Source: an uncultured Erysipelotrichaceae bacterium
GTDB taxonomy: Bacteria > Bacillota_I > Bacilli_A > RF39 > UBA660
Reading direction: 5' to 3'
DNA: 64,000 nt
Assembly: GCA_902764545.1 (NCBI GenBank)
Contig: CACWWC010000001.1
Location: forward strand, 26,482 to 90,481
Shown here: in pieces, positions 9,830 through 63,272 of the stretch
How positions within the stretch are numbered: the first letter of the stretch is position 1
Layout of the letters: each line of letters starts with the position of its first letter
The notes under the pieces: generated by a model
What the model was told of the DNA's origin: nothing
Databases searched by the model: none
Seen by the model: the letters and a program-made list of their open reading frames with translations, nothing else
Position numbers and translations under genes: made by a program

Positions 9830-10750
9830 TTATCTTCCTACCTCGATGTTCATTTCTTCAAGTAATCTATTTAGGTCATTTCCATTTGCAAAGCTTATTT
9901 CTATTTTATTTTTTTTAATTACTACCCTTGTACCTAATTTTTCACTTATTTCTTCTTGAAGATACTGATATTCATTCTGAGTCTTTATTCTCGGTTTTTG
10001 AGGATTACTTTTGATAATTATTGGTTCCTGTGATAATTCTTCTAGTTTTCTAACACTTAGGCCTTCAGATATTACTTTCTCTTCTAATTCTCTTTGTTGT
10101 TCACTATTATCTATTTTGCTTAGTACTCTTGCATGTCCCATTGTTATTTTCTTTTCATTTACGTCTGTCTGAATGGTTGGTGGAAGTGTTAATAAACCCA
10201 ACATATTTGTAATGTGGCTTCTACTTTTTCCTAATCTTTTCGCAAGTTCTTCTTGTGTCAAAGATAATGTTTCTTGTAGTTTTTTATATGCTTGGGCTTC
10301 TTCTATTGCAGTTAAATTCTCTCTTTGAAGGTTTTCTAATAATGCAATTTCCATCATTTGAGTGTCATTGAAATCTCTTATTATTGCCGGAATTTCTGAT
10401 AATCCTGCTAATTTAGATGCTTTTACTCTTCTTTCTCCTGCAATTATTTCATAACCTTTGATAGATTTTTTGATAATAATTGGCTGAAAAACGCCGTGTT
10501 CTTTAATGGATTCTGCTAATTCTGATAATGCACTTTCGTCAAAAAACTTTCTAGGCTGATATGGATTACTCCTTAGTTCATTTATGTTCACCATAGTAAT
10601 TGCTTCTTTTGGTGTTTCATTAACAATCTTTTCTTCAACTGTACTATAATCCAATATTTCACTATTAAATAATTCTTCTAGTCCTTTACCCAAGGCTTTT
10701 CTTCTTGGGATTCCTGTCTCATTTACATTATTTGTTTCCATTTCTTTCAA
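9830..10750 (-). CDS. parB: Chromosome partitioning protein ParB/Spo0J
   Basis: 306 aa. GLGKGL-like KALGKGLEELF, ParB box NPYQPRKFFDE...EHGVFQPIIIK...YEIIAGERRVKASKLAG, and an HTH region. Immediately downstream of soj with a 23-nt overlap. Confidence 0.9.
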   Translation of the reverse strand: MKEMETNNVNETGIPRRKALGKGLEELFNSEILDYSTVEEKIVNETPKEAITMVNINELRSNPYQPRKFFDESALSELAESIKEHGVFQPIIIKKSIKGYEIIAGERRVKASKLAGLSEIPAIIRDFNDTQMMEIALLENLQRENLTAIEEAQAYKKLQETLSLTQEELAKRLGKSRSHITNMLGLLTLPPTIQTDVNEKKITMGHARVLSKIDNSEQQRELEEKVISEGLSVRKLEELSQEPIIIKSNPQKPRIKTQNEYQYLQEEISEKLGTRVVIKKNKIEISFANGNDLNRLLEEMNIEVGR

Positions 10751-11516
10751 TCACTTCCTTTGCTAGATTAATATATGCTTCTGAGCCTCTGCTTTTTGGA
10801 TCATATGCAATTATTGGTTCTCCATGTGATGGAGCTTCTGTTAATCTTACAAGTCTAGGTATTATTGTATTATAGACCTTTTCTTTAAAGAAACTTCTAA
10901 TATCCTCTACAACTTCAAACCCTAAGTTTGTCCTTGAATCCAACATTGTTAATAATACTCCTTCTATATCTAGTGTTGGATTTAGTGTTTTTTGTGCTAT
11001 CATTATTGTCTTTAACAATTGTGTTATTCCCTCTAATGCAAAAAATTCACATTGTACTGGAATTATTACTGAATTAGAGGCTGTTAGTGCATTTGTTGTT
11101 ATTACATCAAGTGAGGGAGGACAATCTATTATTATATAGTCAAAACTTTCTTTTATGTCTACTAAGCTATTTTTTAGTTGTTCTCCTTTTTTAAAGCCTT
11201 TTTCCTGTCTGCTTTTTTCTCCTAATTCATTACCAAGCCCGGCTAGGTTTATTGTTGACGGTACAACATAAAACTTTTTATACTTTGTTTTAACCATTGC
11301 TTCTGTAATGTTGCATTCACCGATTAACACATCATATATACTTTTTTCTATTTCTCCTTTATTTATTCCTACACCAGTAGTTGTATTACCTTGAGGATCT
11401 AAGTCTATTAAAAGTACTTTTTTACCTAATACTGCTAGTGATGCAGAAAGATTTATACTTGTTGTTGTCTTACCTACTCCACCTTTTTGATTTACTAATG
11501 ATATAACCTTTCCCAT
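10728..11516 (-). CDS. soj: Chromosome partitioning ATPase ParA/Soj
   Basis: 262 aa; deviant Walker A NQKGGVGKTTTSINL, DLDPQGN, IIDCPPSL. Confidence 0.92.
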   Translation of the reverse strand: MGKVISLVNQKGGVGKTTTSINLSASLAVLGKKVLLIDLDPQGNTTTGVGINKGEIEKSIYDVLIGECNITEAMVKTKYKKFYVVPSTINLAGLGNELGEKSRQEKGFKKGEQLKNSLVDIKESFDYIIIDCPPSLDVITTNALTASNSVIIPVQCEFFALEGITQLLKTIMIAQKTLNPTLDIEGVLLTMLDSRTNLGFEVVEDIRSFFKEKVYNTIIPRLVRLTEAPSHGEPIIAYDPKSRGSEAYINLAKEVIERNGNK

Positions 11517-11587: not shown

Positions 11588-11612
11588 AAAAAGTAGATTT
11601 TTTAATCTACTC
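11588..11612 (-). terminator. Rho-independent terminator downstream of noc
   Basis: agtagatt / aatctact inverted repeat with a tttt loop. Minus-strand run of T (plus-strand gtaaaaaaaag) follows. Overlaps the noc stop codon. Confidence 0.5.
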
Positions 11613-12815
11613 TTGATTATCCTTTTCTATTTTCAATATTACTTGATAAGATTTTGGAAAGTCCATCTCATCTGCATTAATTTTTATTCCGTGGCTTTTC
11701 AATTCTTCTATCAATCTATGTATTTTATCTATTGCTGTATTTACATTATATTCTTCATCACTTTCTGATGTATTTTTTTCGTCTGGTGTATTTTCTTGAG
11801 GTATTTGTATTGCTGTTAAATCTGGCATTTGGAAATAATCATCTGATTTCTTTTCTACTTTTGGTTCCTCCTTAACTATCTTTTCTGCCGGTGTCAATGG
11901 GGTTGAATTTGTATTTAATAGTCCATCTATATCTGAGGTAGGTGGTGGAGAAATAATTTTTGCTTCTTCCGATTTATTTTGATTATTTTCTTGAAGTACT
12001 TCATTATTTATTCCATTATAATTCATAAATTTTGCATCTTGATTATTTTCCTCCTCTATTGGTGGAGCAATTACTACCTTTCCATAATTTGCTGAATTAT
12101 CTTCTACAGCATCTGTTGTGGGCATAAGTGGTTGGTTATTTAAAAATTCGTTAGCACTTGTTGTTTCGTTTGAAGATATTGCAATTTCTTCTGCTTTCTT
12201 TGGCTTTGGATATTTCTCATTTATCTCTTCTTCAAGCTTTCTAACACTCATTTTTTCATTTATTACTTTTTGTAGAAATTCTTTTTGTATATCTGCTGTT
12301 GGGATGTTTAACAATGCTCTAGCATGTCTTTCTGATATCTTCTCTTTTAATAATGCATCCTGAATTTCGTCTGGTAATGATAACAATCTTATTTTATTGG
12401 CAACTGCTGATTGACTTTTTCCCATTGTCTTTGCTAATTCTTCTTGTGTCATTTCATCTATTTCTAGTATTTTTTGATATGTTCTTGCTTCTTCTATTGC
12501 ATTTAAATTTTTTCTTTGTAAATTTTCTAGCAATGCTACCTTTGAGCTTTCTTTGTCATCTAAATCTCTTATTATTGCTGGAATTTTTGTTTGACCGGCT
12601 AATGCAGATGCTTTGTATCTTCTCTCTCCTGCAATTATCTCATACTTTCCATTAACATTTCTAACTATTATTGGTTGTATTACACCATGCTCCTTTATTG
12701 AAACTGCTAACTCTTTTAGTGCTCTTTCATCAAATACTTCTCTTGGTTGAAATCTATTAGGTATAATATCATCTAAATATAATTGAACTACTTCATCTTT
12801 ATCTTGTTCTGCCAT
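11607..12815 (-). CDS. noc: Noc-like ParB-family protein with a long low-complexity insertion
   Basis: 402 aa. In the rsmG-noc-soj-spo0J position. DDIIPNRFQPREVFDE and HGVIQPIIVR...YEIIAGERRYKASALAG resemble B. subtilis Noc. About 170 aa of N/E/P/T-rich linker precede a small C-terminal domain. Cognate NBS palindromes occur at 28611 and 28705. Confidence 0.75.
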   Translation of the reverse strand: MAEQDKDEVVQLYLDDIIPNRFQPREVFDERALKELAVSIKEHGVIQPIIVRNVNGKYEIIAGERRYKASALAGQTKIPAIIRDLDDKESSKVALLENLQRKNLNAIEEARTYQKILEIDEMTQEELAKTMGKSQSAVANKIRLLSLPDEIQDALLKEKISERHARALLNIPTADIQKEFLQKVINEKMSVRKLEEEINEKYPKPKKAEEIAISSNETTSANEFLNNQPLMPTTDAVEDNSANYGKVVIAPPIEEENNQDAKFMNYNGINNEVLQENNQNKSEEAKIISPPPTSDIDGLLNTNSTPLTPAEKIVKEEPKVEKKSDDYFQMPDLTAIQIPQENTPDEKNTSESDEEYNVNTAIDKIHRLIEELKSHGIKINADEMDFPKSYQVILKIEKDNQE

Positions 12816-19132: not shown

Positions 19133-19218
19133 CTTTTTTTAGGAAAAATATATTTATTTTTTTCACAATTTAATGTAGAATAAAACGTAATTGATTATTC
19201 TTGTGGGGAGATGGTAGA

Positions 19219-25655: not shown

Positions 25656-28109
25656 ATGGATAGATTAGAAAAAAATAATATTGTACAAGAAGTGCAGGAC
25701 TCATTTTTAGAGTATTCCATGAGTGTTATTGTTGCACGTGCTCTTCCAGACTTAAGAGATGGATTAAAACCTGTTCATAGACGTATTTTATATTCGATGT
25801 ATGAATCTGGATATACTCCTGATAAACCTCATAAGAAGAGTGCAAGAATTGTTGGAGATGTTATGGGTAAATATCATCCTCATGGAGATTCTTCAATTTA
25901 TGAAGCTATGGTTAGGATGGCTCAGGATTTTTCATATAGATATATGTTGGTTGATGGACATGGAAATTTTGGTAATATTGAAGGATATGGTGCAGCAGCA
26001 ATGAGATATACCGAATCGCGTTTATCAAAAATTTCGTTAGAATTATTAAAAAATATTAATAAAGATACTGTTGATTTTATACCAAATTTTGATGAGAGTG
26101 AAAGAGAGCCCGAGGTTTTGCCATCAAGGTTTCCAAACATTTTGGTAAATGGTACGACAGGTATTGCAGTAGGAATGGCAACAAATATTCCACCACATAA
26201 TTTAAGTGAAGTAATTGACGGTTGTGTAGCTTATATTGACAATCAAGATATAGATTTAGATGAATTAATGAAATATATTAAAGGTCCTGATTTTCCTACG
26301 GGGGCAACAATTTTAGGTAATAGTGGTATTAGAAAAGCATATGAAACAGGAAGAGGAACAATAACAATAAGAAGTAAAGCAACAATAGAAGAAACGAATG
26401 GCAGACAATATATCATTATTGATGAAGTCCCTTATGGTGTTAATACATTAGAATTAAAAAATAAGGTTGCAGAACTTGTTCATAATAAAACAATTGAAGG
26501 TATTGCTGATTATCACTCAGATTTAAAAAATGGAATTAAAATCACTATTACATTAAAAAAAGATGCAAATGCGCAAGTTGTATTAAATAAATTGTATAAG
26601 CATACTCAATTTCAGACAACATATGGAATTATTTTCTTAATGTTAGATCAGGGAGTACCAAAAACATTAGGATTGAAAGATATAATCTCAAAATATATAG
26701 ATTATCAAAAAGAAGTAATTATTAGGAGAACAAAATTTGATCTTGATGTAGCTGAAAAGAGAGTTCATATTTTAGAAGGATTGAAGATTGCTTTAGATAA
26801 TATTGATGCTGTTATAAAAGTGATTAGGGGATCTAAATCAGATGAAGAAGCAAGGCAAGGATTAATAAATGGTTTCTCATTAACTGAAATACAAGCTAAT
26901 GCAATACTAGAAATGAGATTACGTCGTTTAACTGGTTTAGAGCGCGAAAAAATAGAAAATGAGCTTAATGACTTACTAAAATTAATTGATGATTTAAAAG
27001 CGATTTTAGCTAGCGATGAAAGGATATTAGAAGTAATTAAGAATGAATTGTTGGAAATTAAACAAAAATATGGAGATGAGAGAAGAACAAATATTGATAT
27101 GACTGCTATTGAATATATTGAAGATGAATCTCTTATACCAGAAGAAAATGTAATTATTAATTTAACAAAAAATGGTTATATAAAAAGATTGAGGACTGAT
27201 ACTTACAAAACTCAAAATAGAGGAGGAGTGGGAATTAAAGGTATGACCACAAATGAAGAAGACTTTGTGGAAAGAATTTTATCTATGAGTACACATGATT
27301 ATTTATTATTCTTTTCAAATAAGGGAAGAGTATATAGAATTAAGGGATATGAGGTTCCAGAGTTTTCTAGACAGTCAAAGGGTTTACCAATTGTAAATTT
27401 ATTACCTTTAGAGAAAGATGAGAACATTAGTTCGATATTAAGCGTCAAACCTAATGATGATTTTACTAAATATTTGCTATTTTGCACGAAAAAAGGAATT
27501 GTTAAAAGAACTGCTATTGAAGAGTTTGATAATATTAGAAAAGGTGGAAAAATAGCGATTGTTTTGAGAGATGATGATGAATTAATTAGTGTAAAAAAGA
27601 CCTGTGGAAAAAATGAGATTGTTATTGGTGCAAGTAATGGAAGAATGGTTAGGTTTGATGAAAATGAAATTCGTTGCATGGGAAGAAGTAGTTCTGGTGT
27701 TAAAGGTATAGAATTAGATGGAGCTATTGTTGTTGGTGCAGATGCTGTTGAATCTGGACATATGGTTTTAATTGTTACGGAGAATGGATATGGGAAGAAA
27801 TCTTTAATTGATGAATATAGATTAACGCATAGAGGAAGCAAAGGTGTTAAAGCATATAATGTTACTGAAAAGAATGGAGTAATGGTTTCTCTAAAATGTT
27901 TTAATCCAAATGCTGAATTAGACTTAATTATTATGACAGATAGTGGAATAATCATAAAATTACCATTAGAGCAAGTATCAACATTAAAAAGAGCAACGCA
28001 AGGAATTAGATTGATGAATCTAAAAGATGATCAAAGAGTTTCTACTGTTGCTTTAGTGGAAAAAGAGGATATTATTGAAAATACAGATGCTGATGATAAT
28101 AATTCTTGA
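25656..28109 (+). CDS. gyrA: DNA gyrase subunit A
   Basis: 817 aa. [19 protein letters not shown], the QRDR-like segment [17 protein letters not shown], the active-site AAMRYTE, and a beta-pinwheel C-terminal domain. Confidence 0.97.
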
Positions 28110-28124
28110 TTTATGAATAAAAAG

Positions 28125-28153
28125 CAAAGACTATTATTAGTCTTTGTTTTTTT
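28125..28153 (+). terminator. Rho-independent terminator of gyrA
   Basis: caaagacta (28125-28133), loop ttat, tagtctttg (28138-28146), then seven T. Confidence 0.8.
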
Positions 28154-28162
28154 ATAATTATA

Positions 28163-28178
28163 TGTTTCACGTGAAACT
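28163..28178. other. parS: parS centromere-like site 1
   Basis: TGTTTCACGTGAAACt matches 15 of 16 positions of the palindromic parS consensus TGTTNCACGTGAAACA. The inner 14 bp are a perfect palindrome. It is followed directly by the DnaA-box-like ttttccaca (28179-28187). Confidence 0.85.
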
Positions 28179-28241
28179 TTTTCCACAGTTTTTGTTATTA
28201 AATTTATATGAAGATTTAACTTATTTTAATTATACTTTTAA

Positions 28242-28250
28242 ATTTCCACA
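28242..28250 (+). promoter_or_regulatory. DnaA-box-like 9-mer
   Basis: atttccaca, 7 of 9 to TTATCCACA. It is the same variant as at 20689 and, in complement, the oriC box at 19050. Confidence 0.4.
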
Positions 28251-28610
28251 AAAATAGTATTTATTTTATTAATTAATTATTTTTCTTAAAGATATTATTT
28301 CAATTGTATTACTATATTAGACTTTTTTACATAATAAAAGCATAAACTTCAATAATTTAAAATTGTAAAATGATATTTTTTAAGTTTGGAGATTTAATTA
28401 TCTATTAGAAAAGACGTATAAGATGTTAGAAAATTATAAAAGTATTAACATTATTTTTAATTTTTAAGAATTAATAATTAATCACTTTTGTTAAGCTTAA
28501 AATATTCTTTATATAATAACTTAAATCCTAAAAAAGATTTAAAGTTTATTTATGATATAAATCTAAAAATAAAATTAAAATGAGTTTTGAATGATTACAA
28601 TAATGAAAAT

Positions 28611-28626
28611 TATTTCCCGGGAAATA
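28611..28626. other. Noc-binding site (NBS) palindrome 1
   Basis: TATTTCCCGGGAAATA is identical to the 16-bp B. subtilis NBS consensus (core ATTTCCCGGGAAAT). It is embedded in a 26-bp perfect palindrome at 28606-28631. Confidence 0.8.
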
Positions 28627-28673
28627 ATTTTTATTAATTAAAAATCACCCTATGTATATTATATTTTTTCAAA

Positions 28674-28723
28674 AAAATTATTTCCCAAAATTATTTCCCA
28701 AAATTATTTCCCGGGAAATAATT
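28674..28723. repeat. Three tandem 13-bp NBS half-site repeats, the last completing NBS palindrome 2
   Basis: aaaattatttccc x3 at 28674-28686, 28687-28699 and 28700-28712. The third runs into gggaaataatt, giving TATTTCCCGGGAAATA at 28705-28720 within a 22-bp palindrome (28702-28723). Confidence 0.8.
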
Positions 28724-28770
28724 CTTATTTATTTAAATGTATTAGTGATTTATAATTTTTAAATATTTAT

Positions 28771-28839
28771 TTTTCCACAATAATTGTGATTTTTTTTATG
28801 ATTGTTATTTGTTAAATTCTTAAATATATTTTATCCACA
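28771..28839. promoter_or_regulatory. DnaA boxes, including one perfect consensus box
   Basis: ttttccaca at 28771-28779 forms an inverted pair with tcacaatta (ccacaataattgtg). TTATCCACA at 28831-28839 is a 9 of 9 match to the consensus. Confidence 0.6.
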
Positions 28840-28877
28840 TTAATTGATTTGCTTTTAATATGGCTAATAAGTTGTAA

Positions 28878-28893
28878 TGTTTCACGTGAAACT
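28878..28893. other. parS: parS centromere-like site 2
   Basis: TGTTTCACGTGAAACt, identical to site 1, followed by ttttcaca. Together with flanks it forms a 24-26 bp direct repeat of the 28162-28187 element. Confidence 0.85.
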
Positions 28894-28942
28894 TTTCACA
28901 TTTTTTATTTACATTGATTTTTATTTATAGTAAAATATATTC

Positions 28943-29014
28943 GTGCAATAAAAGTGTCTGAAATAGGTCAGGATTGGAAAATAGCAGCCTTAAGGTCCAA
29001 CTTTTATGTGCACA
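28943..29014 (+). ncRNA. ffs: Small (4.5S-type) signal recognition particle RNA
   Basis: AGGUCAGGAUUGGAAAAUAGCAGCC matches the SRP domain IV core (E. coli GGUCAGGUCCGGAAGGAAGCAGCC), including the GGAA tetraloop. Closing stem gtgcaataaaagt / acttttatgtgcac. Upstream TTGATT...TAAAAT promoter-like boxes and a downstream T-run. Confidence 0.75.
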
Positions 29015-29032
29015 TTTTTATTTGGAGGAAAT

Positions 29033-40225: not shown

Positions 40226-40448
40226 CATGTTAAATGTGATGACGAAGAGCGATATATTAATAATTTCTTAGAGAGCTCTGATGGTGAAAATGAGTAAATT
40301 TGTATATATTTGTATGGCTTCTGAACTTCTATATTGATATGTAAGTATAGACGTACGCAGGCGTTAACTGTTTAAAGTGCATAATTTAATTATTATGAAT
40401 TAAGGTGGTACCGCGAGCTAATCGTCCTTATTTTATAATAATTTTTTT
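40226..40448 (+). promoter_or_regulatory. T-box riboswitch leader (Met specifier) controlling metG
   Basis: T-box sequence AAGGTGGTACCGCG at 40402-40415. Stem I elements tgatgacgaagag and AGAGA (40270-40274). Candidate specifier AUG at 40290-40292 followed by a purine. Upstream extended -10 tgtgataat. T-run before the metG SD. Confidence 0.8.
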
Positions 40449-63124: not shown

Positions 63125-63272
63125 TTATAATAAAGACAATTTGTTGGTGCCATAGACAGTAGGTATAAATGTAAATCCTACCGAGGACTTTGTATAAGTG
63201 GAAGAGAGTCCTTTGGTATGTGCTAAAGGACTCTTTTATGGTATCCCTCAATATAGATTAAGGAGGTGTATT
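63125..63272 (+). promoter_or_regulatory. Candidate L10 (rplJ) leader
   Basis: A 160-nt structured gap before rplJ with hairpins such as gtaggtataaatgtaaatcctac and aggactctt...aaaggactctt repeats. Position matches the Firmicute L10 leader; the model was not scored. Confidence 0.45.

Follow-up and report, generated by a model that had tools for sequence, protein, structure and literature searches.

The parS sites of Bacillus subtilis are single copies dispersed over the origin-proximal region, with one of them inside spo0J, and the sopC centromere of the F plasmid consists of head-to-tail units, each with an inverted-repeat site for a ParB-family protein. In textbooks, parS, the Noc-binding site (NBS) and the DnaA box are separate, dispersed sites with separate jobs. 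Here, we analyzed a 64-kb stretch of DNA from an uncultured Erysipelotrichaceae bacterium (contig CACWWC010000001.1; the whole 64,000-nucleotide stretch is called the window), in which matches to all three are packed in one conserved intergenic array, in the spacer between gyrA and the small signal recognition particle (SRP) RNA gene, ffs. We consider, with a probability of roughly 0.7, that two 20-nucleotide (nt) repeats in this spacer belong, as two of its units, to a centromere array near the origin that is shared across the lineage and would load both ParB and a Noc-like protein.

Clustered chromosomal parS sites are known in several phyla, for example in P. aeruginosa and Corynebacterium, according to sources available in part. 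ParB-family cytidine triphosphate (CTP) clamps nucleate and then slide on flanking DNA (PMC7053999, in its available part; for Noc, PMC8429893). Noc nucleates at a 16-bp NBS and needs a 10-residue N-terminal amphipathic helix for membrane binding (PMC8429893). The NBS of B. subtilis and Staphylococcus aureus has the core ATTTCCCGGGAAAT, which departs from parS at two positions per half-site (PMC7383237), and known NBS are spread across the half to two-thirds of the chromosome that is nearest the origin (PMC7383237, PMC5540599). ParB has RTAG and Noc has QKKR at the four positions that set specificity, and Q173 and R201 together with one lysine at 179 or 184 suffice for NBS (Jalal et al. 2020, PMC7383237). 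With regard to replication, DnaA-box clusters and Spo0J/Soj jointly restrain initiation in B. subtilis (PMC3245932), Noc restrains it in S. aureus (PMC5540599), and the parS region of Caulobacter contains boxes at which DnaA binds and acts (Mera 2014, as reviewed in PMC6399470).

The two repeats in the window (ATGTTTCACGTGAAACTTTT, positions 28162-28181 and 28877-28896) have equal orientation and lie 715 bp apart, which bears out the initial annotation of two identical direct repeats at about this distance. The repeat finder placed them in family D1 (20 nt exact, 73% identity over 48 nt). Each contains the 16-mer TGTTTCACGTGAAACT, at 28163-28178 (parS site 1) and 28878-28893 (parS site 2), and we confirmed for both that it matches the parS consensus TGTTNCACGTGAAACA at 15 of 16 positions and that its inner 14 bp form a perfect palindrome, as previously annotated. 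No other parS-like site with two or fewer mismatches was detected in the 64-kb window, the parB gene included, in agreement with the earlier inspection by eye, which had found no parS in spo0J or elsewhere. When three mismatches were allowed, eight matches were obtained in the window compared with 1.57 expected, and with at most one mismatch the two repeats alone were obtained.

The GC skew changes sign and reaches its cumulative minimum at ~18-19 kb of the window, adjoining dnaA. Rightward of the origin (oriC), the gene order is dnaA (start at 19201), dnaN, recF, gyrB, gyrA (25656-28109), the spacer, the SRP RNA gene, tadA, dnaX, ebfC and recR; leftward, it is rsmG, a gene for a 402-residue ParB paralogue, soj, a gene for a 306-residue ParB, and mscS. 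The parS sites are thus 9.0 and 9.7 kb from the dnaA start, and soj and parB, annotated as ~17 kb away beyond oriC, were measured at ~17.4 kb from the repeats, across the skew switch. Relatives have parS at the same position as site 1. That both repeats are true parS sites is well supported by the consensus match, the location 9-10 kb from oriC, the cognate ParB with its R..G residues, and the retention in relatives; every sequence-level test of a chromosomal parS (palindrome, origin-proximal place, cognate ParB and conservation at the locus) gave the result expected of one.

Between the two parS sites lie two copies of TATTTCCCGGGAAATA, at 28611-28626 (NBS 1, within a longer palindrome, I9) and 28705-28720 (NBS 2), each with a perfect 14-mer (28612-28625 and 28706-28719, respectively). 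These two perfect copies of ATTTCCCGGGAAAT are the sole matches with two or fewer mismatches in the 64 kb, where 0.22 would be expected. The sole tandem repeat that Tandem Repeats Finder (TRF) finds in the window spacer, a 13-nt unit in 3.0 copies with 100% identity (28674-28712), comprises two tandem NBS half-sites (AAAATTATTTCCC, + strand, 28674-28699; repeat family D2) and a third copy that is the left half of NBS 2. Such half-sites (TATTTCCC or GGGAAATA) adjoin full NBS palindromes at 28674-28712 of the window and also in the spacers of four relatives (L001, L004, L005 and L029); slippage may have produced them, or they may provide auxiliary binding. The initial annotation had overlooked both NBS palindromes, the half-sites, and two further DnaA boxes in the spacer that are described below. 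Judged by these motif matches, the site identities (parS, NBS and DnaA boxes) are well supported.

We searched for relatives by GyrA, keeping one genome per species, and obtained 80 loci (L numbers) with GyrA identities of 77-94%. The relatives are uncultured gut Bacilli, and their metagenome-assembled genomes (MAGs) are labelled Bacilli, Mollicutes, Tenericutes or Erysipelotrichaceae, including Candidatus Onthousia and Candidatus Faecimonas. Sites with at most one mismatch were counted in 81 spacers (the 80 loci and the window), of which 56 are complete (55 relatives and the window). Virtually all relatives have several parS sites in the spacer after gyrA, and NBS as well. We found 277 parS sites in 64.3 kb of spacer compared with three in 904 kb outside, and the corresponding values for NBS were 199 and 20. 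All of the outside sites (3 parS and 20 NBS) fall between ffs and dnaX or within dnaX; we had considered them as a scattered distribution and rejected this on account of their positions. No NBS seen in the window or in ~970 kb of origin-proximal DNA from the relatives falls outside the interval from gyrA to the first 1.2 kb of dnaX.

At least two parS sites were present in 55 of the 56 complete spacers (median 4, maximum 11), and at least one NBS in 52 (median 3, maximum 9). Between neighbouring sites, parS and NBS alternate 298 times and a type is repeated 101 times, and the median centre-to-centre distance from an NBS to the nearest parS is 36 nt. The arrays often consist of 60-130-bp tandem units, for example a 75-bp unit in 8.8 copies with 92% identity in L033 and a 64-bp unit in 7.8 copies with 90% identity in L023 (TRF). 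Both palindromes persist between genomes while the linkers look unrelated, and the same layout was found in metagenome contigs with GyrA identities of ~69-74% (e.g. L084 and L166). The predicted array lies ~9-10 kb to the right of oriC, with parS interleaved with NBS and, in a subset of genomes, with each parS fused to a DnaA box. The initial annotation took the repeat pair as bracketing the spacer as a unit; each repeat appears instead to be a single unit of an array found across the clade, and the intervening spacer is itself occupied by sites. The window itself reads as a small, partly decayed version, in the order parS with box, NBS, two half-sites, NBS, box, box, and parS with a decayed box.

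Exact 20-nt direct repeats flanking an AT-rich segment without an open reading frame (ORF) of at least 40 amino acids would also be produced by a mobile element or by site-specific recombination, in which case the repeats would be a target-site duplication or att sites and the 715 bp a non-coding insert. We regard such a scar as highly improbable because the repeat core is the parS consensus, and because the NBS and DnaA boxes between the repeats are the same site types as in the arrays of the 80 relatives. In addition, the segment contains no recombinase gene (no ORF of at least 40 amino acids), there are no terminal inverted repeats at its ends, and the NBS-parS composite was not found in a viral contig collection.

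Two side observations concern the extent of the arrays. In 13 relatives (L026, L028, L030, L031, L032, L036, L045, L063, L064, L069, L070, L073 and L080), an extended NBS palindrome (AAATTATTTCCCGGGAAATAATTT), perfect or nearly so, is located inside the dnaX coding sequence, at about +1030 to +1180 relative to the dnaX start, and in L069 a parS follows it by 44 nt; the window's own dnaX contains no such NBS. The contig stops before ffs or dnaX in 25 of the 81 spacers, and in 21 of these it stops within ~560 bases of gyrA (L002, L009, L013, L016, L018, L021, L022, L034, L038, L039, L041, L042, L046, L048, L051, L052, L057, L067, L075, L078 and L079). An rRNA operon after gyrA was considered as the cause of the breaks and rejected, since contigs ending beyond ~150 nt mostly carry parS/NBS units. 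Because most of the interrupted contigs that reach more than ~150 nt past gyrA already show units, the array itself probably breaks short-read assemblies, which would then fragment here and under-count its copies.

The window encodes a candidate protein for each type of palindrome. Among solved structures, the 306-residue ParB/Spo0J (9830-10750, - strand) is closest to that of B. subtilis Spo0J (6SDK, E = 2e-64). It carries R and G at the counterparts of Caulobacter positions 173 and 201, and the CTP-binding motifs GERRxKA (here GERRVKA) and ENLQRENL. Its N-terminal ...ALGKGLEELF is what we take to be the ParA-contact peptide. The adjacent soj gene (10728-11516, - strand) encodes a Soj/ParA ATPase according to its ParA-family matches. 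The 402-residue paralogue (11607-12815, - strand) occupies the noc position, and its best solved relatives are Noc structures (7NFU, 4.6e-61; B. subtilis Noc, 7OL9, 1.8e-57). The order rsmG, noc-like gene, soj and parB is that of B. subtilis. When the paralogue was aligned with 7OL9, Q, K, S and R were found at the four specificity positions, and QKxR is kept in 114 of its 120 best homologues (394-515 residues). Because Q-K-S-R satisfies the rule of Jalal et al., the Noc-like protein is predicted to have NBS specificity.

The Noc-like protein also departs from known Noc. Its N-terminus, MAEQDKDEVV, is acidic, with 18 residues ahead of PNRFQPR, and B. subtilis Noc has ~21 more N-terminal residues, among them the 10-residue helix that targets it to the membrane (PMC8429893). 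An N-terminal membrane-targeting helix is absent from the protein, and the ORF could not be extended upstream; among the 120 best homologues, 17-20 residues precede PNRFQPR in all 119 in which the motif was found. With the Noc model TIGR04285, it scored 289.6 bits compared with a cutoff of 315 (237.8 bits for the ParB paralogue). Given that both the membrane helix and the curated score fail, the protein is probably a Noc-type DNA reader that does not serve canonical nucleoid occlusion. The DNA-binding domain is joined to the C-terminal domain, which was judged by eye to be Noc-like, by a linker of ~150 residues that shows little conservation over most of its length. Within the linker (residues ~205-350), the motifs FLNNQPLMPT (224-233), NYGKVVIAPP (242-251), GLL (297-299) and DYF (325-327) are kept across the 120 homologues and may be docking motifs for partners.

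We also considered the alternative that the palindromes are hairpin terminators or repetitive extragenic palindromic (REP)-like structural elements whose likeness to parS and NBS is coincidental. Both motifs are indeed perfect palindromes, are intergenic, and lie downstream of a highly expressed gene. However, gyrA has its own terminator hairpin (28119-28152, + strand; inverted repeat I18 and a terminator-like match, just after the stop codon at 28109), which forms the left edge of the hub, and parS 1 begins 10 nt past it. Furthermore, Rfam matches nothing in the spacer, and the palindromes match two independent protein consensuses, for each of which one protein with fitting specificity residues is encoded. 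We therefore attach next to no weight to this coincidence.

DnaA boxes were defined as 9-mers within one mismatch of TTATCCACA, and three were detected on the + strand of the 826-bp window spacer, compared with 0.13 expected (P ~7e-4, first-order Markov model). Box 1 (TTTTCCACA, one mismatch, 28179-28187) abuts parS 1 with a 0-nt linker, a composite also seen in 10 relatives and in metagenome loci. Box 2 (TTTTCCACA, 28771-28779) belongs to repeat family D5, in which 28178-28207 and 28770-28799 are 77% identical. Since its flank resembles that of box 1, box 2 may be a decayed unit minus its parS, as the repeat comparison suggests. Box 3 (28831-28839) is a perfect TTATCCACA. A further box-like 9-mer, ATTTCCACA (28242-28250, + strand), was read from the sequence; with two mismatches, it counts as weak evidence only. 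By hand comparison, no 9-mer after parS 2 is within two mismatches of TTATCCACA: the flank TTTCACA belongs to the 8-mer TTTTCACA, which is not a valid box and looks like a DnaA box minus one C. Accordingly, the proposal that both sites run into a DnaA box held for site 1 (a one-mismatch box with a 0-nt linker) and did not hold for site 2.

Since it is AT-rich (GC of 0.238 in the bin from 28 to 30 kb), non-coding and furnished with three DnaA boxes on one strand, the spacer might be taken for a second replication origin or a part of a bipartite oriC, beside which parS would be incidental. The observations above make this very unlikely: the skew switches at ~18-19 kb, at dnaA, and not at 28 kb; oriC-type boxes are located upstream of dnaA and after dnaA and dnaN; and the arrays of many relatives lack any + strand box.

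We then considered the fusion in the relatives. A + strand box (at most one mismatch) starting -1 to +5 nt after parS was found at 24 of the 277 sites, compared with 1.7 expected from the box density of the spacers, and these composites occur in 11 genomes (the window, L002-L005, L007, L012, L019, L020, L026 and L029). The fused box is origin-distal of parS in all 24 cases. The linker differs between lineages with both motifs kept (e.g. ...AAACATTATCCACA, ...AAACATTTTATCCACA and ...GGAACATGAGTTTTCCACA). As to whether the fusion is conserved, a question raised with the initial annotation, it recurs in 10 relatives and its distribution on the GyrA tree is patchy. Box-like 9-mers on the 5' side of parS in L065, L066, L071 and L074 were weak evidence and not counted as composites; in L066, the one that was read, they are TTATACACA or TTATGCACA, with a mismatch at the conserved C. 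In all complete spacers together, we counted 51 boxes on the + strand and 63 on the - strand, compared with 6.4 and 14.5 expected, respectively (Markov simulation). Because boxes are enriched on both strands, the spacer forms a cluster of DnaA boxes in many genomes of the clade, including those whose boxes are not fused to parS. In one sub-group (L044, L047, L050, L053, L054, L060, L061 and L068), - strand boxes are clustered apart from parS, both at the beginning of the spacer (within 350 nt of gyrA) and in the ffs-dnaX interval, which is another arrangement of the same ingredients.

We scanned metagenomes for a box following the right parS half and obtained at least 120 loci, as a raw count. 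Among the matches listed, a full parS (at most one mismatch) is present in 75 of 120 loci, nearly always at the match itself, and many composites belong to unrelated organisms of 33-68% GC, often beside rsmG-soj-parB. At least six contigs of 38-62% GC share the zero-linker composite TGTTTCACGTGAAACATTTTCCACA (one with GGAAC for GAAAC) and are otherwise unalignable. In a soil group with at least six members, parS, a 4-nt linker, TTTTCCACA and two more boxes are kept while the flanks diverge; the linker is AAAG in five of the six listed, and one member has a parS substitution next to the linker. Composites in unrelated organisms with a GC of 0.38-0.62 include L113, L126, L160, L184, L187 and L198 as well as L093, L122, L128, L134, L140 and L195. 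None of 60 other distinct parS sites in the listed metagenome loci has a box beside it, and these loci give no independent estimate of adjacency. Because the fusion recurs in unrelated mid- and high-GC contigs, it is not peculiar to an AT-rich spacer, and together with the 24 observed against 1.7 expected, its occurrence in unrelated phyla argues against the chance juxtaposition that the initial annotation had allowed for. These results suggest a widespread composite element.

It is also possible that the parS/NBS hub is real and that the DnaA boxes are independent of it, serving as a titration cluster or in the regulation of ffs, tadA and dnaX, with their adjacency to parS a by-product of a copied ancestral unit. 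This explanation would fit the finding of composites in only 11 of 81 genomes, patchily placed on the GyrA tree. It would also fit the boxes that many relatives have at other places in the spacer, not next to parS and often on the - strand, and the window boxes at 28771 and 28831, which are attached to no parS. The same is true of the finding that ParA control of DnaA in B. subtilis is independent of the place of parS (PMC7614844, in its available part). However, linkers of 0-5 nt that vary by lineage with both motifs kept are difficult to attribute to copying alone, and so are the zero-linker composite in otherwise unalignable contigs and the retention of parS, 4-nt linker and box in the soil group while the flanks diverge. 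We consider this explanation unlikely, although it deserves to be taken seriously.

Under the reading that we prefer, an array of parS and NBS serving two ParB-family proteins, the locus might work as follows. The array would grow and shrink by tandem duplication and loss of units. The R..G ParB would nucleate on the two parS sites, close as a CTP clamp and slide outward, and the partition complex so built would be the target of Soj and SMC. The Q-K-S-R paralogue would nucleate on the NBS; because these lie between the parS sites, we propose that both ParB-family proteins are loaded from one locus. Since it lacks a membrane helix, the Noc-like protein is probably a second centromere-bound clamp and not a membrane tether. 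DnaA would occupy the boxes, of which one located 0-5 nt from parS would be within steric reach of ParB, so that DnaA occupancy might compete with or gate ParB loading or sliding in cis while the cluster titrates DnaA. One locus would thereby unite two DnaA-restraining elements that are kept apart in B. subtilis, namely DnaA-box clusters and Spo0J/Soj.

The three site types have the identities, positions, enrichment and conservation reported above, and the two proteins carry the corresponding specificity residues. From these observations we infer binding, co-loading and DnaA-ParB coupling; the coupling to DnaA is the weakest step. The initial annotation had proposed that DnaA titration could be tied to SMC loading or to the control of Soj, which may likewise be the case. 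A stronger version, in which the helix-less Noc paralogue and ParB form one mixed partition complex at the origin, on a dual ParB-family centromere, and DnaA on the boxes next to parS acts as a gate for the loading of ParB or for the side on which its clamp escapes, is offered tentatively, as a possibility that we would not yet favor.

Several points weigh against the preferred reading. All of the evidence comes from sequence. In the window, parS occurs just twice, at a distance of 715 bp and not as a tandem array, and only one parS-box fusion is valid; the composite is patchy on the GyrA tree. The 24 composites are not independent, because array units are paralogues and sites across genomes are orthologues, and the box could have hitch-hiked during unit amplification. 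Because the location of parS is irrelevant to ParA control of DnaA in B. subtilis, as far as the available part of PMC7614844 states, adjacency is not needed for the known Soj-DnaA pathway. The Noc-like protein falls under the NCBI Noc cutoff (289.6 versus 315), and it may also have ordinary scattered NBS beyond the origin region.

At the right edge of the hub, the small SRP RNA gene (ffs; Rfam RF00169, 57.1 bits compared with a gathering score of 40) occupies 28932-29029 on the + strand, and no ORF of at least 40 amino acids was found between gyrA and ffs. A promoter-like site for this gene, TTTACA-17-TAAAAT (28908-28936, + strand; a consensus match only), starts 14 nt beyond the end of parS 2. 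In the 45 spacers with ffs located (44 relatives and the window), the median distance from the last parS of the array to the SRP RNA start is 57 nt (range 27-258). Being so close to that start, the last parS is set against the ffs promoter, and ParB could influence ffs transcription, or transcription could limit ParB sliding. The tadA ATG (29033) follows the predicted 3' terminus of the SRP RNA gene by 4 nt, with GGAGG at 29025-29029; since the start is so close, the tadA ribosome-binding site would be within the SRP RNA gene. The longest tadA ORF, from 29006, would overlap the SRP RNA. Elsewhere in the window, Rfam detected a T-box leader (40230-40432, 111 bits) and a ribosomal protein L10 leader (63132-63246, 49 bits), both ordinary and unrelated to the spacer hub.

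The array spans a broad clade of uncultured gut Bacilli in which the Noc paralogue is without the membrane helix that defines nucleoid occlusion, whether through loss or from the outset. It therefore offers a test case for how Noc diverged from ParB, for whether two CTP-clamp proteins can share one loading zone, and for whether DnaA talks to the partition complex in cis. If the dual-centromere reading were true, Noc-type specificity could serve a centromere without nucleoid occlusion, as an ancestral state of Noc or a derivative of genome reduction, and replication initiation and segregation would be coupled directly in cis. In practice, the array marks the origin region in MAGs of this group, and the recurrence of parS-DnaA-box fusions in unrelated phyla suggests a wider rule. 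In the papers searched, with incomplete coverage, we found described neither arrays in which parS and NBS are interleaved, nor a long Noc lacking the helix, nor parS-DnaA-box fusions repeated from unit to unit.

Compared with the ParB(Spo0J)-Soj-SMC system of B. subtilis, the locus is alike in its 16-bp palindrome, its origin-proximal place, soj and spo0J next to rsmG, and the CTP motifs and R..G residues of ParB. Unlike in B. subtilis, no parS is present in parB, all sites detected in the window are in one spacer, and the relatives have tandem arrays of up to 11 copies. With the Noc/NBS system of B. subtilis and S. aureus it shares the core ATTTCCCGGGAAAT and a paralogue at the noc position with Q173, K179 and R201. 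It differs from that system in that the NBS are concentrated in one parS-interleaved array in the origin region, and in that the protein is helix-less, has a ~150-residue linker and scores below the cutoff. The relatives' head-to-tail units with a ParB-family palindrome and variable copy number resemble sopC of F; however, they are chromosomal, contain the universal chromosomal parS, and would serve two ParB-family proteins and sometimes DnaA, and in the window there is just a pair of diverged units separated by 715 bp. Finally, DnaA boxes that are close to oriC without being part of it, and that have a genetic or physical link to partition, are shared with the parS boxes of Caulobacter (Mera et al. 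2014, as reviewed in PMC6399470) and the clusters of B. subtilis (PMC3245932). In B. subtilis, clusters and parS are treated as separate, whereas the clade studied here has the box adjoining parS, at a distance of 0-5 nt, in an arrangement repeated unit by unit.

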